Below, piece by piece: positions 20,204 through 30,847 of a DNA stretch of 64,000 bases. Position 1 is the stretch's first letter; the number at the start of each line of letters is the position of its first letter. Made by a program: the position numbers and the translations under genes. The notes below the pieces were generated by a model. The model was not told the DNA's origin and ran no database searches. It saw only the letters and a list, made by a program, of their open reading frames with translations. The DNA lies in NCBI GenBank assembly GCA_944332995.1, contig CALVKR010000002.1, forward strand, positions 191,752 through 255,751. Direction: 5' to 3'. The DNA is from an uncultured Clostridia bacterium (lineage in GTDB: Bacteria; Bacillota; Clostridia; Christensenellales; CAG-917).

Positions 20204-21463
20204 ATGGGAAATAACAAAGCAATAAAATGGATACTTGTTATACTTTTGGTAGCAATTTGCATAAGCTGTTTTATAATTGTCTGCACTGTCAATTTAAACT
20301 CTGCAAGCGGAACGAATGCGGAGGAAACGGTAACGGAGGAAAAACCGCCTATAACCGAGGAGCCTCTGCCCGATAAGACGGAGCCTGTCTATTCCGTATT
20401 TCCCCGAGATATAGCAACATACGACTCGGTGGGAGTCGGACATATCGGCGGAACCTTTTCCGATACGCTCATCGAAGTGTTCTCTCTCGGTCAATACTAT
20501 TTTTCTATAATTTCCACAGGCTCAACCGACTACGATTTTACCGAAAGCGGATTTGCGCTTGCAAAATCTACCGACACGTCCTTGCTGGATACGGCGACTT
20601 TCGGCAAAGGCGAATATGTCTGTTCCACCTTTACCGAAGGGAATATTGCCGTTGCCCTTAAATCGGACGGCGTGATAACACTTTTCTTTTTCGACACTTC
20701 TCTTTGCCTGTTATCCTCCTATTCTTTACAGCTCGACGACGCCGTTTTTTATTCGAGCTCGTCAATGCTGTTCGGAACGGCAAACGGCGAACTTTTCGTA
20801 TACGAAACCCTGCCTTCAAAAAGCACTTTGCTTTTTAAAGGCAGGGTAAACGAAAACGTGAAACTAAAACAGATATTTAAAACCAACAATTCCTTTTTGG
20901 TGATAATGTCGGGCGAAAACCTCACAGAGGTTTATTCATACGACACCTCGCTCACTTTGGTCAAAACCATAAACGACGACTACCTCGACTGCTGCATATC
21001 CACCGAGCGTTTTGCGATTTTTTGCACAAGCGGCACCCTATACGCTTTCGACCTCGAGTTTGAGCTCGTTTCAACGCAAAAACTCAAAGAGTGCGTATCG
21101 GCAAAGTTTATCCCTGTTTCGGGCGGCGTTATGCTCGTAACCACAAAAGGATACTATAACCTTTGCTCACACTTCGACAGCCTCAAATTTATGGCGTTTT
21201 CGCTCGAATATCAAAGCGTTGATTTTGCCGTCAAGACGGACGGAGGATATATTCTCGCACAAAGGGACAACCTTGTGGATATTATCCGTTTTACGAGCTT
21301 CGGAAGCTATAACACGCTATATACATTTACCGCCAAAAACACGTTTAAAAGAGTGTTTATAAAACAGAGCGCCTTTACGGTATTTCTGACAAACGCCACT
21401 ATAGACAATATCTTTAAAGACAACTTCGGCGAATCGGACGTATTTTGGCTGTGCCTTAAATAA
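20204..21463 (+). CDS. Hypothetical membrane-anchored protein; extracytoplasmic domain of unknown function
   Basis: 419 aa with an N-terminal TM (WILVILLVAICISCFIIVCTV). The remainder is beta-rich and has no motif I recognise. Confidence 0.5.
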   Translation: MGNNKAIKWILVILLVAICISCFIIVCTVNLNSASGTNAEETVTEEKPPITEEPLPDKTEPVYSVFPRDIATYDSVGVGHIGGTFSDTLIEVFSLGQYYFSIISTGSTDYDFTESGFALAKSTDTSLLDTATFGKGEYVCSTFTEGNIAVALKSDGVITLFFFDTSLCLLSSYSLQLDDAVFYSSSSMLFGTANGELFVYETLPSKSTLLFKGRVNENVKLKQIFKTNNSFLVIMSGENLTEVYSYDTSLTLVKTINDDYLDCCISTERFAIFCTSGTLYAFDLEFELVSTQKLKECVSAKFIPVSGGVMLVTTKGYYNLCSHFDSLKFMAFSLEYQSVDFAVKTDGGYILAQRDNLVDIIRFTSFGSYNTLYTFTAKNTFKRVFIKQSAFTVFLTNATIDNIFKDNFGESDVFWLCLK

Positions 21464-22008: not shown

Positions 22009-22862
22009 AACCATTTTTATTCGGAGTTATTCCCGCATACGGATTTTTTATTTTTATAGGAGCGGCTTTAGGCGTCTTGCTCGCTACGTTTCGCCGTCGC
22101 CATGACGGAATATCAAACAAAGAGGTTTTCTTTACAGGCGTCATATCTTTAACGATAGGTCTTATAGGCGCAAAGCTGTTTTACATTTTCGGGACGCTTC
22201 CCAAAGTTATTTCGGGAGATATGCCGTGGATTGCCCTTTTTGAATCCGGATTTATGTTTTACGGCGGTCTTATATTCGGAATTTTGGGCGCACTGCTTTG
22301 CGCCTACATTTTCAATATTCCGATAAAGCGTCTTTTTGACGCTCTCTCATTCGGCGTTCCCATAGGACAGGCTTTCGGCAGAATAGGCTGTTTCTGCGCC
22401 GGCTGTTGTTTCGGAATTCCCACCGATTCGGCAATAGGCGTCGTGTTTACCCACCCTCTCGCCTCCACCACTCCCGTGGGCGTTCCGCTCGTTCCCACTC
22501 AGCTGATTGAATCGGCAAGCTGTTTTCTGATTGCCGTCATAATGCTCGTCGTATTTTCCAAAAAGAGAAGGGACGGAGCGGCTTTCTGGACGTATATAGT
22601 GCTTTACGCAGTCACCCGTTTTATAATAGAATTTTTCAGAGGCGACGCCGAAAGAGGTATGATTGGGGCGCTTTCCTCGTCGCAATTCGTCGCAGTGCTG
22701 TTTTTGTCGGCGTTTGTCGTCTATCTTATCGTCCGCAAAATCGTAAAGGCAAAGATAGGCAAAAACGACTCCTTCCTCGAGGCCAAAGGAGTTATTTATA
22801 AACTTCCGAAATGCGCAAAATGGAACATAATGAAATTTGACCAATATGCAAATTTAAAATAA
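22005..22862 (+). CDS. lgt: Prolipoprotein diacylglyceryl transferase
   Basis: MKPFLFGVIPAYGFFIFIGAALG N-terminus, GRIGCFCAGCCFG motif, multi-TM. The ATG at 22005 is preferred over the upstream extension in the ORF track (21960). Confidence 0.85.
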   Translation: MKPFLFGVIPAYGFFIFIGAALGVLLATFRRRHDGISNKEVFFTGVISLTIGLIGAKLFYIFGTLPKVISGDMPWIALFESGFMFYGGLIFGILGALLCAYIFNIPIKRLFDALSFGVPIGQAFGRIGCFCAGCCFGIPTDSAIGVVFTHPLASTTPVGVPLVPTQLIESASCFLIAVIMLVVFSKKRRDGAAFWTYIVLYAVTRFIIEFFRGDAERGMIGALSSSQFVAVLFLSAFVVYLIVRKIVKAKIGKNDSFLEAKGVIYKLPKCAKWNIMKFDQYANLK

Positions 22863-22892
22863 AAAACCGACTGAGTTCAGTCGGTTTATTTT
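22862..22892. terminator. Bidirectional rho-independent terminator between convergent lgt and the protease gene
   Basis: 8-bp stem ACCGACTG/CAGTCGGT with loop AGTT, flanked by an A-run upstream and a T-run downstream. Confidence 0.75.
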
Positions 22893-23060
22893 AGCCTGAT
22901 TTTGCGATATGTTTTGCAATGCGTTATAAAATTTATGTATTCGTTTAAGCCTTATCTTTCTCGCTTTAGCCGTATCGCAGATATCTAATTTCGCTTTTTT
23001 ATCTTAAAAGAGGTTTTAAATAGCTTTGGCGACTTTAGTTAAAATAATCCCCTTTTGGTT

Positions 23061-23873
23061 TTACTCTGCAATTTCCTCTTTTGCTCTTTCCAAAAATTCC
23101 TTGACTGCTTCAAGCGGAATGGCGTAGTTTATACCCAACTTGCCGGAGTCTGCCACAACGACGCCCACGACCTTTCCGTCGTCGCCAATCAAAGGACCGC
23201 CGCTGTTGCCGGGCAGAGTGTTGGCTGTGATTACTATAAACTCCTCGTCGTTCACCTTTCTGAGTTCGTCGGATACAAGACCGTCGATAATGCAAAGCCC
23301 TTTACCTGCGCTGTTGCCGATGGCGTAGATATGCTCGCCTGTCCTCACCGCTTTATCAGAAAATTCGGCAGGTTTTAAATTTTCGGCTTCGATTTTAAGC
23401 AATGCCAAATCCTTTTTCGGGTCGGCGGTAACAAATTCAAGCGTATACATTTGCGATTGCTTATAAAACTTACAATATATGAAATTGGATATATTTTCTA
23501 TCTTTTTATCCGCCGATACCTTGCCCACGCAATGCAAATTTGTAAGAACGTATCCGTCCATACATATAAAACCGCTACCCGTCGAGATTTCGTCGCCGTA
23601 AGTAGCGCCCACGGTAACGACGCTGTCTCTGTTTTTGTCGAACACGTTTAAGTTTTCTTCTTTCTCAATTTCCACAACCGCCTTAGCCTTTTTAACCGCA
23701 GTTTTGGGTGCGTTTTTAAGATTAAAAACTCTCAGCTTAGATTCGCTGTTAAATTCCCCGAAACAGCTGCGGCATTGATAGCCGTAAAAAGTGTTGCCGT
23801 CCTTTTCGTATTCGACAAGCTCTACGATTTCCTCGCTTCCGCAAATTTCGCATTTATCGCATTTAAAAACCAT
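23061..23873 (-). CDS. Zn-ribbon + trypsin-like (S1/Trypsin_2) serine protease; last gene of the candidate system
   Basis: 270 aa. N-terminal CxxC...CxxC (KCDKCEICGS...YQCRSCFG). Catalytic triad candidates are LTNLHCV (His), KKDLALLKI (Asp) and GNSGGPL (Ser). No PDZ domain and no signal peptide. Confidence 0.8.
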   Translation of the reverse strand: MVFKCDKCEICGSEEIVELVEYEKDGNTFYGYQCRSCFGEFNSESKLRVFNLKNAPKTAVKKAKAVVEIEKEENLNVFDKNRDSVVTVGATYGDEISTGSGFICMDGYVLTNLHCVGKVSADKKIENISNFIYCKFYKQSQMYTLEFVTADPKKDLALLKIEAENLKPAEFSDKAVRTGEHIYAIGNSAGKGLCIIDGLVSDELRKVNDEEFIVITANTLPGNSGGPLIGDDGKVVGVVVADSGKLGINYAIPLEAVKEFLERAKEEIAE

Positions 23874-23881
23874 AACTCCTC

Positions 23882-25033
23882 CTACTCGGCAATTTCTTCG
23901 CCGTTTCTGTAAGCCTCGAACTTGGCGAGCTCTTCCTCGGTTATTACGTTTCTCGTAGTCTTAATAGCTTTTTCAAGGTCTTTAAGCGTTATATTTTCCG
24001 CTTTTCCGCTCTTGACCGCTCTCTTATATGCTTCGAGCTTTACTTTTTCGCATATGGCGGTTATATCGCCTCCACCGAATCCCTTAAGCGACACGGCAAA
24101 CGCTTTTAAATCGACATCGTCGTCTTTAGGAAGATTTTTGAGCGCCTTGTTTACCATAAACTCGCGGGCGCCCTCGTCGGGCAGACCGACGTATATTTGT
24201 GTGTCGAAACGGCCGCCTCTGACCATTGCGCTGTCGATGACCCACGGACGGTTGGTAGCGGATATCAAAAGCAGCATTTTGTTTGTCTTAGACTTTTTAA
24301 AGCCGTCTACCTTGGTCAGAAAAGTAGCGACAAATCTTGCCATTTCTGCGTCGACGCCGCCCGAGCTATCCCCTCTTTTTGAAGCGACGGAATCGAATTC
24401 GTCGAAAAAGATTATTGCTCTTTCGTTTTTCTGCGCAGTTTCAAACAGAGCGTCAAGCTGCTTGGAGCTGTCGCCCATATATTTAGAAATGAGGTCCTGA
24501 CAGTTTACTGCAAAAAACTTTGCGTCAACCTCACCTGCTATCGCCCTTGCAATAAATGTTTTACCTGTTCCGGGAGGTCCGTAAAGCATTATCTTTCCGC
24601 CCGGTTTTATATTGTAGAGTTTGGCAAGTTCGGGATTCCCCAGAGGCGCCAACACCTTGAAACGTATCTGATCTTTTACGTCCTCGAGCCCTGCCACGTC
24701 TGCAAAGGTAACTTTGTTTTCATCGGTATCGACAGGCTGAAAGGTAGGCATTTCGTCGTCCTTTTTCTGCGCCTGTTTATTCTGTTCCGCGTCGGCTGTC
24801 CTGATGGGTTTTTTGCCGGAACAATGACTTCTTACAAAGTCGAGAATTTTTGAAGCAAGTTTATGATACTCGATTTTTACGTCGTTCGTAGTCGCTGTCG
24901 TCGATATATCGTCGGCAAGTTCAGCCGCTCTCAAAAATGCGTCTCTTGCTCCTAAAATATCACCGGCACCGTAAAGTTCTTTGCCCGTTGCGTAAAAACT
25001 TTTATATGCTTCCACTTTAGCCGAATTGTTCAT
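23882..25033 (-). CDS. AAA+ ATPase of the classical (Vps4/katanin/FtsH-like) clade with an MIT-like three-helix N-terminus
   Basis: 383 aa. Walker A GPPGTGKT, Walker B IIFFDEFD, second region of homology SATNRPWVIDSAMVRGGRFD. The first 80 or so aa are helical and MIT/TPR-like (GDILGARDAFLRAAELADDI). Confidence 0.8.
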   Translation of the reverse strand: MNNSAKVEAYKSFYATGKELYGAGDILGARDAFLRAAELADDISTTATTNDVKIEYHKLASKILDFVRSHCSGKKPIRTADAEQNKQAQKKDDEMPTFQPVDTDENKVTFADVAGLEDVKDQIRFKVLAPLGNPELAKLYNIKPGGKIMLYGPPGTGKTFIARAIAGEVDAKFFAVNCQDLISKYMGDSSKQLDALFETAQKNERAIIFFDEFDSVASKRGDSSGGVDAEMARFVATFLTKVDGFKKSKTNKMLLLISATNRPWVIDSAMVRGGRFDTQIYVGLPDEGAREFMVNKALKNLPKDDDVDLKAFAVSLKGFGGGDITAICEKVKLEAYKRAVKSGKAENITLKDLEKAIKTTRNVITEEELAKFEAYRNGEEIAE

Positions 25034-25149: not shown

Positions 25150-27951
25150 CTATCTTTTGAGCTTTAAACCTCTCGAGTTAAAATAATCGTCGATATCGAA
25201 ATGGTCGTCAAATTCAAACTCGTATCGCTCGTCGTCATCGTCGTCACGGTCGAGCCTTTTTTCGTTGAACTCAAAAATGTTTTCATACCTCGTTATTGCG
25301 GAAGGAAATATAACGAGCGCCAAAACGACAGCCATGAAAAATCCCACTGCGCTCGTGCCGCTTTCGCTTGCACGTATAATCTGCATTCTCGCATTTTTTA
25401 CACCGCCGAATTTTTCGTTTTTATATTGCTCGTTGACAACGTTAAGTTTATAATCTCTATACTTTTTAATCCTGAATCTTAACACGACCAAGGATATAAT
25501 AGACAAAACGGCAAATACGAGCATGAGCACGAAAGTTACGAATGCTCCGCCCAAAAATTTGTTTTGGGTTTCCGCCACTATCGTTACCACAAAACAGGCA
25601 ACAAACGCCATAAACAGCAACGTCGCCGTCAGTACGTAAGGAGCAATCGAAACCTTTTGCTTTTGCGATTCGTTTTTCGCTCTAGCCTCGTCCCACTTTT
25701 TTTGCACTTTATACAACGTCGAGCCCTTTTCAACGCCCGTGCCGTTAAGCGGAGGATTGTTATCTTTTCTGTTTTGCCCTTGATTTTGAGCCTGATAATT
25801 TTTAGCGTTTTTTACGATACGCATGCAATTTTGCGTTTGTCTGTCGTCTGCCACCGCAAGAAAGTTTACAAACTCGGGCATTGCGGATATATCCGCTCCG
25901 CTTCTCTCCAGCTCGCTGTCCGTGGAGGCTTTTGCCTTTGCCATGATAAGTTGCCAGAACACGTTCGGGTTTTCTTTATCGTATTCAAGCCTGAGTTTGA
26001 GATAATACACGGCAGAATCGAAAAATCCTGCTTTCATACAGGCGTCCGTCATTGCCGTTAGCTGTCCGTCGATTTCGCTTACGTCGGAGGGATAATATCT
26101 TATGACGTGATTGAAAGTTTCAACACAATTAGCCGTGACAGGCGCACTGTAAAGTGCGTCGAGGACGGCGGTTATCTCCCTTTGCTGCCCGACCTTGTCG
26201 AGAGATATCAAAAGCGCCTCGAACTCGTCGAATTTAAAACGGTTCGGCAATGCGATATCCCGGTCATATCTGACCTCGGACGGAGATATCGGGCTAAGCG
26301 ACGTTGTCCTGATAATTCCTCTTAATGCGTCGGTATAGCCTGCGTCGATTTTTAAAACTCTCGAAAAATACATCTTCGCAACGGAATACTGCTTTTTATA
26401 AAGCGCCGCCACGGCAAACTCGTATAAGTATCTAATGTGCAAATCGACGTCCGAGGAATCGACTGCGCATATAACTTTTTCAAATAGAGAAGGCGAAACC
26501 TTCATCGACACCGCTTTCATTATTTTTTCTACGTTTGCTTTTGAGTTTTCGTAAGAATACGGCAATATGGCATCAAGAAGCGAAAGTGCGTCCTTTTCGT
26601 TTACCTCGACAAGGTTTGCCGCCAAACCGTAAAAGATGTCGAGAGCGGAAACGGCAAAGTCCTTGCTTGCCTTCGATATAATTTCGTCCGCCATATCCGA
26701 TTCGGGAAACGCTTCCGACTTTATAAAATCGGAAACGCTCATACAGCGACGGTTGACAAACAGTTTATACATAAGTGCTTCCGCACTGTCAGGATTTGCC
26801 TTTAAAATCGAATCGAGCAAAGCTGACGCCTCGTCAAACAATCCGTTTTGCGCCATCGTCTTGACGACGGCAAGCTGTTTTTTCTCGGAAAGCGATAAAT
26901 CTATTCCTTTAAGATTGAGGCTTTTTTGCTCAAGCTGTTTTGTCGCAACCTCTTTCGCCCTTTTTAACACTCTGCCGGATTTAAGGCTGATTTTTTCAAT
27001 GCCGTTGCCTTCGGTGGAAGTCGTTTCCTCAAACACCTTTTCTATGTGCCTTAAAAGGTCGCCGAGAAAGGTTTTTTTGGAGCCGTCGAGGCATTGCCTG
27101 TTTTTAAGAGATGACGGCAAAAGGCTCGGGTCGAAATTTTCATATACCACAACAAGGCTTGCCGAATGTTTTTCACCCTCTGCCAACAGTTTGGCATAAC
27201 GGCGCCATTCGTTTTTCACCCACGCCGACGTGACGTAATCGGGATTTTGAGCGTAAACTATCATAACTCTCGCCGTTTTGATAGCGTTAAAAATATAAGG
27301 CTCGTATTGCTCGGCAATCTTATCTCTTAAACTTTCTCTCGAAAAGAATACTCTGTATCCTGCCTGAGTGAGGTATGTATAAAGATTCTGAGCCTCATAG
27401 CTGTCTTTGGTGCGCTCTATTCCCTTTTCCGAGTCGCTGTCTTTGTAACATATGAAAATATCGTAAGGTTTTTCCTTGCTCGCTTTAAAAAGCCATTCCG
27501 TGCGGATTTTTTCTATCTTTTCGCCCAAGCGGACGTAATTATCTTTAACCTCGCCGACGCTGTGCTCGATTGCGGCAAGATAATCTTTGTCCTGCAAAAA
27601 TGACGATTCGCTTATCCTGTGACAGGTGGGAACTTTTTTCGAGTCGACGTCGTCGACAAACAAAACTCCCGCCCTTGCCAAAGCCCTGCCCCAATAAGCC
27701 TCGTGGCAGTCGCTGTCGGCGGATATAACTCGGCTGAAAGATTCCTCGGCTTCTTCAAATTCGCCTTTTCTGAGGTCGTCGAAAGCGTTATACAGTATGA
27801 CCTCGTTTTGCGATTTTGCCGTCCTGCTTTCATATTTTGCGCCGCATGCAAGACACTCCAAAACGACCCCGTCGTCACGAAGGGGACCGCCGCATATTTT
27901 ACAAATAAGTTGTGTAAGTGTGTCTTTTTCCATATTCAATCGTTTAGGCAA
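25150..27951 (-). CDS. Zn-ribbon - TIR domain - helical (TPR-like) repeats - 3 TM - acidic tail protein
   Basis: 933 aa. CKICGG...CLACGAKY at the N-terminus. TIR-like block at aa ~161-300 (YDIFICYKDSD...GYRVFFSRESL...ARVMIVYAQNPDYVTSAWVKNEW). Three C-terminal TM helices, then the tail DRDDDDDERYEFEFDD. An alternative ATG start lies at 27933. Confidence 0.75.
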   Translation of the reverse strand: MPKRLNMEKDTLTQLICKICGGPLRDDGVVLECLACGAKYESRTAKSQNEVILYNAFDDLRKGEFEEAEESFSRVISADSDCHEAYWGRALARAGVLFVDDVDSKKVPTCHRISESSFLQDKDYLAAIEHSVGEVKDNYVRLGEKIEKIRTEWLFKASKEKPYDIFICYKDSDSEKGIERTKDSYEAQNLYTYLTQAGYRVFFSRESLRDKIAEQYEPYIFNAIKTARVMIVYAQNPDYVTSAWVKNEWRRYAKLLAEGEKHSASLVVVYENFDPSLLPSSLKNRQCLDGSKKTFLGDLLRHIEKVFEETTSTEGNGIEKISLKSGRVLKRAKEVATKQLEQKSLNLKGIDLSLSEKKQLAVVKTMAQNGLFDEASALLDSILKANPDSAEALMYKLFVNRRCMSVSDFIKSEAFPESDMADEIISKASKDFAVSALDIFYGLAANLVEVNEKDALSLLDAILPYSYENSKANVEKIMKAVSMKVSPSLFEKVICAVDSSDVDLHIRYLYEFAVAALYKKQYSVAKMYFSRVLKIDAGYTDALRGIIRTTSLSPISPSEVRYDRDIALPNRFKFDEFEALLISLDKVGQQREITAVLDALYSAPVTANCVETFNHVIRYYPSDVSEIDGQLTAMTDACMKAGFFDSAVYYLKLRLEYDKENPNVFWQLIMAKAKASTDSELERSGADISAMPEFVNFLAVADDRQTQNCMRIVKNAKNYQAQNQGQNRKDNNPPLNGTGVEKGSTLYKVQKKWDEARAKNESQKQKVSIAPYVLTATLLFMAFVACFVVTIVAETQNKFLGGAFVTFVLMLVFAVLSIISLVVLRFRIKKYRDYKLNVVNEQYKNEKFGGVKNARMQIIRASESGTSAVGFFMAVVLALVIFPSAITRYENIFEFNEKRLDRDDDDDERYEFEFDDHFDIDDYFNSRGLKLKR

Positions 27952-28060
27952 CAGCCGACGGCAAAGCCTTATAAACGTAGCCGTTTATCAAATCGGAAAT
28001 AAAGCAAGCGTTCCCGTCGCATACGACGTCAAATAAACCCACTTTAAAACTCCGAGCTTA

Positions 28061-28111
28061 AAACTTTCCGCTCCCCCGCCCGCTACCCGTCTGGGCAGAC
28101 GGACGGAAAGC
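28061..28111 (-). terminator. Candidate compound hairpin / terminator between the Snf7-like gene and the TIR gene
   Basis: GC-rich nested stems: CTTTCCG...CGGAAAG enclosing CCGTCT-GGGC-AGACGG. TTTT follows on the minus strand. Confidence 0.4.
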
Positions 28112-28120
28112 GAATTGTTA

Positions 28121-28717
28121 TCAGTCTAAAATTTTGTTTTTCTCTTTTGCTATCTCGTCCGCAAGGCTCATACCCGTGCTCTTGGGTGCGTTTGGCAAAG
28201 CCGCTCCGCTGAGTTTCGCTCTTGCGGCGTCTATCATGGGACGGACTGCCGATATCTCGTCGTTGCTTCTTGCCCTGTTGGCAGGATTGGACGACTTCAT
28301 GGCGCCCGCCATAGCCTTTTGAGAAATTTTTATGTTTCTCATATACTTGCTGATTTTGATGTTCGCCTTTTGAATTTTCTTGATATCCGGCATTTTGGCT
28401 TTATTGCCCGCCATTTTGTCGAGAGCGTTGATAGCCATTGCCATATTCTGAGCGATAGCGTTTGAAACGTTTATTATATCAAAATTCGCCTTTGTCTGCG
28501 TGAGCGAGCTGATAACGTCGTTAAGTTCGATAAGAGCGTTTACCGCCACGTCGTAGCTGCCCATATCGCCGTTTATTTCCGCCTGAGCGGCAATGTTGGC
28601 ATATTCCTGTCTTTTGGCGGTGAGCTCGTTTATCTGGTCGTTAAAAATCTGCATTTGCTCGTCGCGTTCCATTTGCGCTATAATTTCTTTTTCTTGTTTG
28701 GTTTTGTAGAAAGCCAT
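28121..28717 (-). CDS. ESCRT-III superfamily-like (Snf7/PspA-like) all-helical protein, candidate
   Basis: 198 aa, predicted long helical hairpin. The segment NFDIINVSNAIAQNMAMAINALDKMAGNKAKMPDIKKIQKANIKISKYM resembles the Snf7 alpha2-alpha4 core. The C-terminal LADEIAKEKNKIL is MIM-like. GGAGG RBS. Confidence 0.45.
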   Translation of the reverse strand: MAFYKTKQEKEIIAQMERDEQMQIFNDQINELTAKRQEYANIAAQAEINGDMGSYDVAVNALIELNDVISSLTQTKANFDIINVSNAIAQNMAMAINALDKMAGNKAKMPDIKKIQKANIKISKYMRNIKISQKAMAGAMKSSNPANRARSNDEISAVRPMIDAARAKLSGAALPNAPKSTGMSLADEIAKEKNKILD

Positions 28718-28733: not shown

Positions 28734-29741
28734 CTATTTTACGGTTGGCGTATCTTGATTTCCGACTTCTTCTTCATCCAAATCGGACATGCTCGATTGA
28801 GCTGCTTTTTGAGCGTTTCGTTTTGCGATAAGTTCCTGTTGATAGGCAACGGCTTCGCTCGTGGCGGCGTCGTCGACTTCGCCGAATCCGCTTATCTTTT
28901 GTTCGTTGGCTTCGATTTTAGGCACCATGGCTTTTAAATCTTCTTCCATTTTCTTGAGCGTGGTAACCGCCCTTTCCGGCTCGGCAATGACCTTTTTGAG
29001 GTCGTCCACTTTAAGATATGCCTTTGCCTTATTAAGTTCGGATACGGAAAACTCCGAAGCTATGATTTTTTCTCCCACCAAACTTGCTATCATATCGAGC
29101 AAATCGCTGCAAAAGCTGTAGTTGCGGTAAGTATTGTTGAGTGCGTTGAGCTTAACCTTGACCGCCTTGACTTTAGATACGAGATTGTTGAGTTTGCGGT
29201 CGTTTTTTTCGTCTATTATGGCGTCGTTCAATTCGTCGATATCTCTTTCGAGGTTCTGCATTTCCGCCTCGAGTCTCTTTTCGTTTGAAAGATATTCCGA
29301 TTGCACGTCCTTTAATTCCGAAAGTTTTTCTTCAAGTTTTCTTCTTACCGACGAGGTTTCTCTCTTTTGGAGTTCCTCGCCTGCAATGGACGAATCCACG
29401 TCGCCGTAGAGCACGCTTGACCATTTATCGATAGTATAGTCGAGGTCGTCCACCGACTGAATGAGCCTGCCGCTGAGATATGACTTCATTTGGTCTCTTA
29501 CGTCGTCAATTTGAATCAAAGCGGTATTATAAAAACATTCGATGTTTTCGTCGCCCGTACCCACGATTTCTTCAAAATTTTTGATAACGTCGTAAAGTTT
29601 TTTTCTTGCCTGCTGAACGGATTCACCGTTTAAATCTTTGTTGTATCTTCCCTTATCGATATCAAATATGACGCCCTGCAATTTTTTTGCGACCTCGTCG
29701 CGCATGGCGTTGTTTGCTTTTACTGACGGTTTATACTTCAT
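28734..29741 (-). CDS. Long coiled-coil protein (possible PspA/ESCRT-III-like or TelA-like), hypothetical
   Basis: 335 aa with heptad-rich E/K/L/N composition and an acidic C-terminus. Its start overlaps the SPFH gene stop by 11 nt, with a GGAGGGGG RBS inside the upstream gene. Confidence 0.4.
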   Translation of the reverse strand: MKYKPSVKANNAMRDEVAKKLQGVIFDIDKGRYNKDLNGESVQQARKKLYDVIKNFEEIVGTGDENIECFYNTALIQIDDVRDQMKSYLSGRLIQSVDDLDYTIDKWSSVLYGDVDSSIAGEELQKRETSSVRRKLEEKLSELKDVQSEYLSNEKRLEAEMQNLERDIDELNDAIIDEKNDRKLNNLVSKVKAVKVKLNALNNTYRNYSFCSDLLDMIASLVGEKIIASEFSVSELNKAKAYLKVDDLKKVIAEPERAVTTLKKMEEDLKAMVPKIEANEQKISGFGEVDDAATSEAVAYQQELIAKRNAQKAAQSSMSDLDEEEVGNQDTPTVK

Positions 29742-30408
29742 CGCTATCCCCCTCCGAATTGACGGCGTTTTTTATCATGAGCATATCTTCTTCCGGCACG
29801 AAAATTTTTGCCGTTAAAGTGTTTACCTCTATTCCCATGTCTTTTATCAATTCTTTTTCGTTTAACTGTTTTTTGATTGCCACAGATACTTCTTCCGTCT
29901 TGGCGGTAACCTCAAAAACGGAAACCGTCGTATCGGCAAAAAGAGTCGCCACTGCGTCGGAAGCCACCATCTGCATGCATGACAGCACTTTTTTCTTTAT
30001 ATCGTCAAGAGTGATAACTGTTCCGAATTTGAAGTTGTCGATAAATCTGCGGTCGTTTACCACCTCGAAGACACATTCTCCGTTGGCGCCCACTCTGTAT
30101 GCCTGTTTAAGTTTCGGGTTTTTGACCTGAATGTCGCCCACTCCCCAAAGAATTTTCGGGAATACCGTGCTGACAAACGCCACCCTAAGCTGTTTTTTAA
30201 GATAACTTCTGTCCTTTTTCAAAAGGTCGAAAACTCTTTCGTCGGCGCACTGCTTGACCACCGCTTCGATTTTTTCATCGATATACAGATAAGCCTTAAA
30301 CTGCCTCGGAACGGTTATATTTACGTCCTTGGTCAATTCGAGCGGTTCGCAAAACTGAACGATTAAGTTTTCGTCGGCATAAGGTTTCAATAATACTTTT
30401 TTCGACAT
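29731..30408 (-). CDS. SPFH/Band-7-like protein of the YdjI (COG4260) type
   Basis: 225 aa, colinear by eye with B. subtilis YdjI-type proteins (ITVPRQFKAYLYIDEKI.., ..WGVGDIQVKNP.., YRVGANGECVFEVVNDRRFIDNF, ITLDDIKKKV, GIEVNTLTAKIFVPEED). Confidence 0.55.
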   Translation of the reverse strand: MSKKVLLKPYADENLIVQFCEPLELTKDVNITVPRQFKAYLYIDEKIEAVVKQCADERVFDLLKKDRSYLKKQLRVAFVSTVFPKILWGVGDIQVKNPKLKQAYRVGANGECVFEVVNDRRFIDNFKFGTVITLDDIKKKVLSCMQMVASDAVATLFADTTVSVFEVTAKTEEVSVAIKKQLNEKELIKDMGIEVNTLTAKIFVPEEDMLMIKNAVNSEGDSDEV

Positions 30409-30414
30409 AACTTA

Positions 30415-30777
30415 CTACCTCTCCTTATTTTCGGTTGACTTGATCACCTGGCAAATCCTTTCAATCGTTTCGTCGTCGAGATTTTCTTTTGCAACGGCGT
30501 ATATGACCCTCCTGCGGTTCTCCTCGAGATTAGCAAAATCAAGACGCATATTTTCAAGCGAGGAAGCAAGCGCCTTTTTCATCTTTTCCTGTTCTTCAGG
30601 CGTAAGGTCGTAGTTTGCCAAAATTGCGTCCTTCAAATCGTCGGGAACGTTGCGTTTGCCGTTTTCGATTGCCGAAAGATATGACGCCGAAATCCCCAGT
30701 TTTTCCGCCATTTGCTTTGCGCTGTCGCCGCAGTTGATACGAATTATCCTGAGTGTTTTTCCAAATTCCGTTATCAT
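30415..30777 (-). CDS. XRE-family helix-turn-helix transcriptional regulator; first gene of the cluster
   Basis: 120 aa with an HTH_3 signature (FGKTLRIIRINCGDSAKQMAEKLGISASYLSAIENGKRNVP). AAAGGAGAA RBS. Confidence 0.85.
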   Translation of the reverse strand: MITEFGKTLRIIRINCGDSAKQMAEKLGISASYLSAIENGKRNVPDDLKDAILANYDLTPEEQEKMKKALASSLENMRLDFANLEENRRRVIYAVAKENLDDETIERICQVIKSTENKER

Positions 30778-30818: not shown

Positions 30819-30847
30819 ATTATAGCATTGAAAAATGAAATAGTCAA
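30819..30847 (-). promoter_or_regulatory. Near-consensus sigma-A promoter for the XRE-led operon
   Basis: Minus strand reads TTGACT, a 17-nt spacer, then TATAAT (-35 at 30842-30847, -10 at 30819-30824), about 40 nt upstream of the XRE ATG. Direct repeats TGTAAATTT x 2 lie just upstream at about 30861-30885. Confidence 0.65.

Follow-up and report, generated by a model that had tools for sequence, protein, structure and literature searches.

A predicted membrane-anchored TIR protein with an SPFH partner in a conserved seven-gene operon of gut Clostridia

The TIR gene and the domains of its product

We analysed a 64,000-nt stretch of contig CALVKR010000002.1 from an uncultured Clostridia bacterium (hereafter, the window), concentrating on a gene whose product combines a zinc ribbon, TPR-like helices, a TIR domain, an α-solenoid, three transmembrane (TM) helices and an acidic tail. 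The gene is the fifth of seven on the same strand. An earlier note, prepared from the letters of the window and its translated open reading frames (ORFs), had described the product as a membrane-tethered TIR protein with a potentially catalytic glutamate and an unusual architecture. The ORF at 25150..27951 (−) was confirmed, and encodes 933 aa if counted from the TTG at 27951. Translation more probably begins with codon 7, an ATG (nt 27933), because the representative of a 99%-identical cluster has 927 aa and because this ATG aligns with the starts in relatives. The gene was therefore taken as 25150..27933 (−), encoding 927 aa, with the TTG as an alternative start. Residues are numbered here according to the 927-aa product unless the 933-aa numbering is specified; the Glu248 of the earlier note is thus Glu242.

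When compared with its counterpart in the closest genome (L010; labels of this form denote the loci that we collected), the gene had a dN/dS of 0.08 over its whole length and of 0.04 within the TIR domain, indicating that it is under purifying selection. The between-strain dN of the TIR protein was 0.11, which is 3 to 30 times that of the other operon genes, and identity drops to about 35% outside the TIR domain. The raised dN fits a diversifying sensing surface. The possibility of a pseudogene or chance ORF was ruled out by the dN/dS of 0.08 and by the existence of more than 1,100 homologs. No paralogue of the TIR protein occurs elsewhere in the window.

An AlphaFold2 model of the TIR protein, computed from an alignment of 75 homologs, had a mean predicted local distance difference test score (pLDDT) of 86.8. 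At the N-terminus, residues 11-36 form a three-stranded zinc ribbon of short strands (pLDDT about 90) with the motif C11xxC14-x12-C27xxC30 (27844..27903 (−)); all four cysteines are invariant in the 75 homologs. The earlier note had proposed a CxxC-x17-CxxC ribbon. The ribbon stands, and its spacing is corrected to C17xxC20-x12-C33xxC36 in the 933-aa numbering. Next come TPR-like helices at residues 42-87 (27673..27810 (−)), modelled as helices 42-55, 59-72 and 77-87. In the 933-aa numbering, the TPR-like segment that had been pointed out lies at 65-92, where it was said to be, and Pfam gave a sub-threshold TPR_16 match at 60-92 (29.9 bits). A β-hairpin (90-104) and a long helix (127-153) separate these helices from the TIR domain, which occupies residues 155-308 (27010..27471 (−)).

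The TIR domain is followed by a linker, residues 309-347, where confidence is lowest within the cytoplasmic part of the model, and then by a TPR-like α-solenoid of 375 aa (residues 348-722; 25768..26892 (−)) with pLDDT mostly >93. TPR_19 and TPR_14 exceeded their Pfam cutoffs at residues 359-395 of the 933-aa numbering. According to Foldseek searches of the PDB, the solenoid resembles the TPR superhelices of Ski3, IFT-A, designed CTPR, APC/C and NatA (E 1e-4 to 1e-3). The expectation of about 450 aa of helical repeats after the TIR domain was thus correct as to their nature and too generous as to their extent, part of that length being the linker.

Three TM helices were located at about residues 764-786, 796-817 and 860-878 (25300..25644 (−)) from Kyte-Doolittle peaks, helices of the model and charge counts. 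Eight K/R residues precede TM1, a 9-residue loop follows it, and 11 K/R residues lie in the loop between TM2 and TM3. Based on hydropathy and this positive-inside charge distribution, the N-terminal ~760 residues, comprising the zinc ribbon, TIR domain and solenoid, are predicted to be cytoplasmic and the C-terminal tail extracytoplasmic. This agrees with the earlier placement of a membrane-tethered TIR domain in the cytoplasm. The tail, 49 aa with 17 D/E (25153..25299 (−)), is predicted to be disordered (pLDDT <50). Its acidic run was found at 901-924 of the 933-aa numbering, as described before, and is kept in the closest relatives only.

The TIR domain and its catalytic-position glutamate

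The TIR_2 profile (PF13676) matched residues 165-292 of the 933-aa numbering with an E-value of 9.7e-11 and 42.7 bits, against a cutoff of 28, and the TIR_2 matches of homologs ranged from 1e-8 to 1e-13. The profile search that had been suggested as a check was therefore significant. The motifs on which the original assignment was based were all recovered in place: DIFICYKDSD at 164-173, GYRVFF at 198-203, IVYA at 231-234 and SAWVKNEW at 242-249 (933-aa numbering). In the AlphaFold2 model, strands 159-162, 195-197, 223-228, 260-264 and 280-283 alternate with helices at pLDDT >90. As modelled, the domain has the canonical βA to αE fold of five strands and five helices.

In Foldseek searches with the full-length model, the solenoid dominated the listing, which included no TIR structure. 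The TIR region was therefore compared by profile with the sequences of the PDB instead. The single TIR sequence aligned to the TIR domain of TLR15/TLR2 with an E-value of 0.0016, and a profile of 18 family TIR regions aligned to the TLR15/TLR2 TIR and to that of Roq1 (E 0.044). In these alignments, Glu242 of the SAWVKNE motif (codon at nt 27208-27210) falls on the W+4 glutamate of SCWCQYEL in TLR15/TLR2 and of SSTWCLEEL in Roq1. In SARM1 (E642) and plant TIRs, the glutamate at this position is the catalytic residue. W238, N241, E242 and W243 are invariant across the 75 homologs, whose overall identity is 26-50%; some 30 further positions are invariant in the same alignment, nearly all of them within the TIR domain. 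The assignment of the glutamate to the catalytic position is thus upheld. The conservation pattern is that expected for an enzyme, and the domain is a putative NADase.

Distribution of the family and its SPFH partner

Homologs of the TIR protein, numbering more than 1,100, were found in Clostridia (Christensenellales, Borkfalkia and Oscillospirales-type metagenome-assembled genomes (MAGs)) and in Bacilli (Acholeplasmatales and Anaeroplasma), in samples from human, animal and termite guts. The earlier note had suggested looking for the same domain order in other genomes: a module of about 310 aa, comprising the zinc ribbon, TPR and TIR domain (ZnR-TPR-TIR), is constant throughout the family and is usually followed by the solenoid. 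Database entries call members simply a 'TIR domain-containing protein' or a 'leucine-rich repeat protein'.

What lies beyond the TM helices, as judged from the sequences, is hypervariable across the family. Some members, the window protein among them, end in two to five TM helices and a short tail. Others possess one TM helix followed by 200 to >2,000 aa of BspA-type leucine-rich repeats (LRR_5), Flg_new (Listeria-Bacteroides) repeats, DUF6273, M23 or SH3 domains. Still others carry a TM2 domain, or RCC1 repeats with no TM segment at the hydropathy threshold used.

To characterize the genomic surroundings of the family, we sampled it directly from metagenomes, obtaining 79 loci. Members whose TIR region is at least ~50% identical to that of the window protein lie mostly within the full operon described below; more distant ones mostly do not. 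Of the 21 loci in which 5 kb or more flanked the TIR ORF on either side, 17 have a gene for an SPFH protein of the Band_7_1 type within 8 kb, usually within 3 kb, whereas the operon proteins P198 and CC335 are present in only 4. These counts therefore indicate that the core association is that of the TIR protein with SPFH, and that the HTH, CC335, P198, AAA+ and protease genes are an add-on of the window's clade. The earlier note had linked the TIR protein to ESCRT-III-like and AAA+ neighbours. This link holds in the window's clade; the more distant homologs occur without both, a finding that the note had named in advance as speaking against its proposal and that applies to part of the family. 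A resemblance to the YdjG system of Bacillus subtilis, also raised there, proved apt in that the family's most constant neighbour is an SPFH protein of the YdjI-type Band_7_1 family.

In the simpler loci, the SPFH protein has 420-510 aa, matches Band_7_1 at 131-135 bits and often carries YdjI-like C-terminal double zinc ribbons. Beside or between the SPFH and TIR genes, these loci usually add a conserved, unannotated protein of ~230 aa (230-265 aa) with four N-terminal TM helices, a cytoplasmic helical domain bearing the motif RYSDP(V/M)S and a basic C-terminus (L120:8784-9476, L098:8790-9515, L116:8768-9472, L125:6686-7378, L090:5030-5740, L003:14366-15076 and L086:8761-9558). This four-TM protein is absent from the window operon, and loci consisting of SPFH, four-TM and TIR genes lack the AAA+ and protease genes. 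A few family members are solitary.

The seven-gene operon

The window operon begins with a gene for a Cro/XRE-type helix-turn-helix (HTH) regulator of 120 aa with a helical C-terminal extension (30415..30777 (−); HTH_31 7.5e-11, HTH_3 3.3e-10). The second gene (29731..30408 (−)) encodes an SPFH protein of 225 aa that lacks TM segments; it is of the Band_7_1 (YdjI) type, matching that profile with an E-value of 2.5e-7 and 31 bits (cutoff 24). The third (28734..29741 (−)) encodes CC335, a 335-aa coiled-coil protein of no recognised family that had no significant Pfam, NCBIfam or PDB match, and the fourth (28121..28717 (−)) P198, an all-helical protein of 198 aa with an ESCRT-III-like predicted fold. 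The TIR gene is followed by genes for a classical single-domain AAA+ ATPase of 383 aa (23882..25033 (−); AAA 9.7e-39) and for a 270-aa protein (23061..23873 (−); Trypsin_2 1.9e-24) in which a zinc ribbon precedes a trypsin-like protease of the HtrA/DegP type without a PDZ domain. In the protease, the His, Asp and Ser motifs of the triad are intact. Its N-terminal C5xxC8...C34xxC37 bears out the earlier remark that the ribbon recurs two genes downstream of the TIR gene.

The best promoter-like site of the region, the sigma-70-type TTGACT-17-TATAAT with an extended TG and 11 of 12 consensus positions, lies upstream of the HTH gene at 30819..30847 (−) and is the probable operon promoter, judging by its sequence. 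The strongest terminator-like element, a hairpin with a 10-bp stem and 5 GC pairs followed by the T-run TTTATTTT, lies at 22864..22887 (−). An Rfam scan of the operon region yielded sub-threshold matches only. One of these, to the C0465 small RNA (22821-22893, + strand; 33.3 bits against a threshold of 40), overlaps the terminator hairpin and most likely just reflects it.

To assess the conservation of the gene set, we searched a P198 alignment against one genome per GTDB species, which identified 36 loci, and mapped the seven window proteins onto them by BLAST. Nearly all loci with a long enough contig have the same gene order. The HTH gene is the conserved first gene in most of them, the CC335 gene always precedes that of P198, and the AAA+ gene stays next to that of the protease, the two being conserved together. 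About 30 of the 36 species-level loci, which come from Clostridia and Bacilli, keep the operon order, and about 30 encode a ZnR-TPR-TIR protein, whose length ranges from 460 to 3,154 aa. The seven genes constitute one conserved transcription unit, of which the TIR protein is the sole integral-membrane subunit. Purifying selection on P198, SPFH and the AAA+ protein is very strong; P198 keeps 61-86% identity between two bacterial classes, and its between-strain dN is 0.003.

Some loci depart from this arrangement. In many operons, P198 is directly followed by another AAA+ paralogue, which is longer (406-483 aa), shares 35-40% identity with the window AAA+ and occurs besides or in place of the 60-80%-identical one (L016:6724-7944, L020:10591-11973, L029:9772-11223, L031:3465-4745, L032:10587-11867 and L037:5719-7125); the window has none. 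Locus L027 (10582-20579) carries the HTH, SPFH, CC335 and P198 genes, but the next 10 kb downstream include neither a TIR gene nor genes for the AAA+ protein and the protease. These are replaced by ORFs resembling transporters and lipoproteins, an arrangement unique among the species-level loci, and the locus may be a decayed or split system.

P198 and the AAA+ ATPase

The AlphaFold2 model of P198 (pLDDT 67) consists of five helices: a hairpin of 43 and 51 residues, then three shorter helices, a succession that fits the ESCRT-III fold. Met1, Phe3 and Lys5 are invariant in an alignment of 40 members that are 70-86% identical to the window protein. In Foldseek searches, the top matches were CdvB, CHMP2A-CHMP3, CdvB2, an Asgard ESCRT-IIIB, CHMP1B, IST1, Vipp1, CHMP3 and Shrub, none of them significant (best E 0.17, probability 0.89-0.94). 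A profile of diverse P198 members ranked CdvB of S. islandicus first among 177,635 PDB sequences with an E-value of 0.032. No Pfam match to Snf7 or PspA_IM30 was obtained for the 40 members, even at an E-value of 10, and a HMMER profile of P198 searched against 1.84 billion proteins found just 45 close relatives (clusters). Neither the Pfam comparison nor this exhaustive search revealed a sequence link of P198 to Snf7 or PspA. The earlier description of the neighbour as ESCRT-III-like thus retains a likeness of fold and profile and lacks statistical significance and a Pfam match. Based on the model and the profile, we consider 'ESCRT-III-like' a probable but unproven description of P198. The possibility that CC335 is a second ESCRT-III paralogue was rejected: hhalign gave a probability of 0.2% against P198, and a profile search of the PDB returned generic coiled coils only.

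The AAA+ protein has intact Walker A and B motifs, a KYMG pore loop, an RGGRFD motif and arginine fingers. Its scores against the NCBIfam models of PAN, Cdc48, FtsH and CdvC were about equal and each below the cutoff (170 bits for CdvC, cutoff 650). Its best PDB matches were p97/Cdc48/VAT, and a Vps4_C match (E 0.0014) was below the cutoff. No MIT domain was detected in the N-terminal 100 residues, where the only match was a marginal one to TPR_2 (0.089) on residues 12-41. The protein is thus a classical-clade ATPase, and its description as 'Vps4-like' is a suggestive functional analogy, not a membership.

The combination is nonetheless notable in view of published gene sets. According to a 2025 review, the ESCRT-III systems of bacteria appear to lack a Vps4-like ATPase (PMC7619361). 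It is in archaea that the closest published set, one combining SPFH, coiled-coil and zinc-ribbon proteins with ESCRT-III and Vps4, has been described (PMC11188069). A survey of bacterial PSP systems reports PspA with Band-7, YdjG and AAA+ partners and no Toll-type TIR (PMC11237479).

Comparison with known systems

Searches with the 5,027 defence models of PADLOC (2.0) gave no match to the TIR protein, SPFH, P198 or CC335, and the full-text literature searches that were made turned up no description of the TIR family or the operon. The architecture and gene set match no PADLOC 2.0 or NCBIfam model, in keeping with the earlier impression that the protein differs from known TIR systems; the individual parts (TIR, TPR, SPFH, classical AAA+ and trypsin-like protease) are all of known kinds. 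The system is thus a membrane-anchored, SPFH-coupled TIR system and a new variation on known TIR systems.

With the bacterial TIR NADases (Thoeris ThsB, AbTir, SpbK, TIR-STING, TIR-SAVED and PycTIR), the window protein shares a TIR_2-type domain, the S-x-W-x-x-x-E motif and the catalytic-position glutamate, and its sequence leads us to predict that NAD+ cleavage would likewise depend on oligomerisation. Unlike in those proteins, its TIR domain is fused to a zinc ribbon, TPR helices, a 375-aa solenoid and TM helices, and is linked to SPFH. The sole NCBIfam link to Thoeris was a weak match to the type III model ThcB4 (E 1.4e-3; 17.5 bits, cutoff 220). Among the seven operon proteins, there was no PADLOC match to ThsA or ThsB and no SIR2, SLOG or Macro domain; nor did Pfam and PADLOC detect in them a CD-NTase, pyrimidine cyclase, SAVED, STING or cNMP-binding sensor such as would indicate CBASS or Pycsar. 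The AAA+ and protease genes recall IetAS, which also pairs a classical AAA+ protein with a serine protease encoded next to it, and PADLOC IetA models match the ATPase with an E-value of 5e-43. Unlike in IetAS, however, the protease is of the Trypsin_2 type rather than an IetS subtilase, the setting is a seven-gene one, and the match to NCBIfam IteA is weak (127.7 bits, cutoff 510). Assignment to a known defence system via the IetA-like match was rejected, the match being generic and IteA far below its cutoff.

The ydjFGHI operon of B. subtilis (PspA-YdjG-YdjH-YdjI) shares with the window operon a Band_7_1 SPFH protein beside a zinc-ribbon membrane protein anchored by C-terminal TM segments, and an ESCRT-III-superfamily-like helical protein; P198, however, is not detectably PspA_IM30. 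Whereas YdjG has two zinc ribbons, a YpeB/NTF2-like domain and a TM segment (PMC11237479), the window protein has one zinc ribbon, the TPR-TIR-solenoid array and no NTF2-like region. The window operon also lacks the TPM-domain protein YdjH and adds the AAA+ protein and protease. The resemblance to YdjG is therefore positional only, residing in the zinc ribbon, the membrane anchor and the YdjI-type SPFH next door.

Archaeal ESCRT loci (CdvB/CdvC, 'Meth_adaptin' variant; PMC11188069) likewise unite an ESCRT-III-like protein, a single-domain classical AAA+ protein and SPFH, coiled-coil and zinc-ribbon components, and archaeal CdvB provides the best fold and profile matches of P198. By contrast, the window system is bacterial, has no detected MIT domain, no demonstrated Vps4 β-domain and no ESCRT-I/-II parts, and includes the TIR protein and the protease. 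Finally, members of the family resemble animal Toll-like receptors in joining LRRs, a TM helix and a cytoplasmic TIR domain, and the best PDB sequence match is the TLR15/TLR2 TIR. Unlike in those receptors, the order is reversed, with an N-terminal TIR inside and C-terminal LRRs outside; the LRRs are of the BspA type (LRR_5), and the window protein has none. The likeness is one of convergent architecture, not orthology.

With regard to mobility, tblastn searches of 50,697 phage and 72,556 plasmid records gave 0 matches, and an origin from phages or plasmids was rejected. Some 2.9 million viral contigs contained one TIR match and zero P198 matches. The presence of the operon in two classes at 60-75% P198 identity was counted in favour of mobility. 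So was the proximity of some loci to toxin-antitoxin, SOS-polymerase and conjugation genes: at two metagenome loci (L007:1-5800 and L008:1-5800), the operon stands beside mobile-element-type genes encoding a PemK toxin, a Y-family polymerase, a LexA-like repressor of the S24 type, a TraG P-loop protein and DUF87.

Proposed function and alternatives

Our preferred reading, to which we assign a little less than an even chance, is that the operon encodes a membrane-coupled conflict or stress system of the abortive-infection type in which the TIR domain would act as an NAD+-cleaving effector or a signal generator. We favour this reading because of the TIR_2 match, the canonical fold, the invariant glutamate, the TIR dN/dS of 0.04 and the N-in topology; because of the conserved operon order, the SPFH linkage, the variable regions after the TM helices and the raised dN of the TIR protein; and because of the ESCRT-III likeness of P198, the intact AAA+ and protease motifs, the bracketing of the operon by a promoter and a terminator, and the mobile-element neighbours at some loci. 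In the resting state, the solenoid and a lattice of SPFH, coiled-coil and ESCRT-III-like proteins would hold the TIR domains apart at the inner face of the membrane. A perturbation of the envelope or membrane, such as phage adsorption or injection, would be the trigger and might be sensed via the TM/ectodomain part or via the SPFH/ESCRT-III-like assembly. The proteins would then cluster, composite TIR-TIR active sites would form and NAD+ would be consumed. Composite TIR active sites are known from SARM1, plant TNLs and bacterial TIR filaments. The AAA+ protein might remodel or disassemble the polymer in a Vps4-like manner, or feed a component to the zinc-ribbon protease, so as to arm or reset the system; the repressor-type HTH protein would control expression of the operon.

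Several points weigh against this interpretation. It is based on sequence and predicted structure, and the TIR domains of scaffolding TLRs keep the same glutamate, so that conservation is no proof of catalysis. The assignment of P198 to ESCRT-III is statistically weak (E 0.17 and 0.032), and the AAA+ protein has no detected MIT domain. The TIR protein, SPFH and P198 match no PADLOC model. Housekeeping genes (murG, lgt and a two-component system), rather than a defence island, surround the operon both in the window and in close relatives; some family members have ribosomal-protein or RNA-polymerase operons on either side, one such member being solitary. Collections of plasmids and phages contain essentially no members of the family, which is therefore less mobile than many defence systems. 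The window protein itself has no ectodomain, just the 49-aa acidic tail.

The housekeeping context, together with stable synteny in the window's lineage, would suit a different function, which we consider unlikely overall: that of an envelope-stress or membrane-repair machine resembling the Psp response. SPFH would recruit a P198/CC335 polymer to damaged membrane and the AAA+ protein would recycle it, while the TIR protein would serve as membrane anchor or adaptor, its TIR domain being a scaffold for homotypic oligomerisation or a regulator rather than a killing NADase. The constancy of the Band_7_1 SPFH partner, the ESCRT-III likeness of P198 and the very strong purifying selection on P198, SPFH and the AAA+ protein argue in the same direction, as does the precedent of B. 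subtilis, where YdjI is needed for the recruitment of PspA to the membrane according to PMC8581546 as cited in PMC11188069 (discussed in PMC11237479). However, such a machine leaves unexplained the invariant catalytic-position glutamate with its W-x-x-N-E-W motif, the hypervariable LRR/Flg_new ectodomains and the dedicated protease, and P198 has no PspA or Snf7 sequence signature. Alternatively, the operon could be a module for regulated proteolysis or quality control gated by SPFH, in which a cage of SPFH and coiled-coil proteins encloses the membrane protein, the AAA+ protein extracts or unfolds it and the zinc-ribbon protease cleaves it, for example in linker 309-347. The TIR protein would then be a substrate or adaptor, and cleavage might free an active ZnR-TPR-TIR fragment. 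The pairing of SPFH proteins with proteases, established for HflK/C-FtsH and stomatin-NfeD, provides a precedent. An SPFH cage is cited in PMC11188069. Compatible with such proteolysis are the aromatic pore loop KYMG of the AAA+ protein and the full triad of the protease, the adjacency and co-conservation of their genes, the N-terminal zinc ribbon present on both the TIR protein and the protease, and the status of the linker as the least confident cytoplasmic segment. Yet the simpler loci of SPFH, four-TM and TIR genes have neither AAA+ nor protease, so that the family's core function cannot be proteolysis. Both the cleavage site and the substrate are putative. We find this explanation improbable.

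The LRR-bearing relatives raise another alternative, to which we give little credence: that the family consists of Toll-like receptors in inverted orientation, whose extracytoplasmic LRR/Flg_new modules bind an external ligand (a phage, another cell, or a host or dietary polymer), the signal crossing the TM helix to the solenoid and TIR domain for physiological, non-suicidal signalling. Many members do consist of ZnR-TPR-TIR, with or without the solenoid, one TM helix and 200-2,000 aa of BspA-type LRRs or Listeria-Bacteroides repeats, and across members a constant cytoplasmic module is joined to a varying ectodomain. But the window protein and many relatives have three TM helices and a short tail in place of an ectodomain, members with RCC1 repeats have no clear TM segment, and Pfam and PADLOC searches of the operon found no downstream partner such as a second TIR protein or a nucleotide-binding effector.

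TIR domains are common to the innate immunity of animals, plants and bacteria, and the bacterial TIR systems known to us are soluble sensors or effectors driven by a second messenger. The present family differs in being large and built on the membrane, with a constant cytoplasmic module, a hypervariable outside and a tie to SPFH. If its TIR domain is active, it would provide a new coupling of membrane or surface events to NAD+ chemistry and a tractable model for what SPFH cages and bacterial ESCRT-III-like polymers regulate. It would also bear on whether the LRR-TM-TIR logic of receptors predates animals, and would add a candidate defence system, so far unrecognised, to gut Clostridia, which are abundant and little studied. 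The conflict-system reading has a bolder form, to which we give a low probability: P198 would be a bacterial ESCRT-III-type polymer with its own AAA+ remodeller and SPFH, wired to a membrane TIR NADase, such that damage or phage contact leads to NAD+ depletion or to a TIR-made signal. If so, P198 and the AAA+ protein would represent a pairing said to appear absent from bacteria (PMC7619361), the LRR-bearing sister proteins would be genuine inverted 'bacterial Toll-like receptors', and outside-in immune sensing by LRR-TM-TIR proteins would exist alongside ESCRT-linked immunity in gut Firmicutes.

Additional observations

The HTH regulator gave a weak full-length match to the PADLOC capH model (E 2.2e-5, residues 1-117). 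In CBASS, CapH serves as a repressor, and a partner protease inactivates it; the operon of the HTH protein likewise encodes a protease.

The spacer between the P198 and TIR genes (27934..28120 (−), 187 nt) is predicted to be structured, with a minimum free energy of −71.8 kcal/mol (z −4.2) that none of 200 shuffles reached. Its sequence is unconserved, the closest relatives included, and its length is 200-250 nt in those relatives and 10-40 nt in distant loci. The spacer could be a lineage-specific attenuator, a processing site or the remnant of an insertion.

Elsewhere in the window, murG and lgt are separated by a 419-aa ORF (20204-21463 (+)) that has a hydrophobic segment at its N-terminus. 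In the corresponding place beside murG, locus L002 has a 434-aa ORF without a Pfam match. The nearest genome record, L010 (FR901010.1), is labelled 'Acidaminococcus sp. CAG:917', and the syntenic relatives L011-L015 are Christensenellales/Clostridia MAGs; the Acidaminococcus label is probably a misnomer from the binning era.

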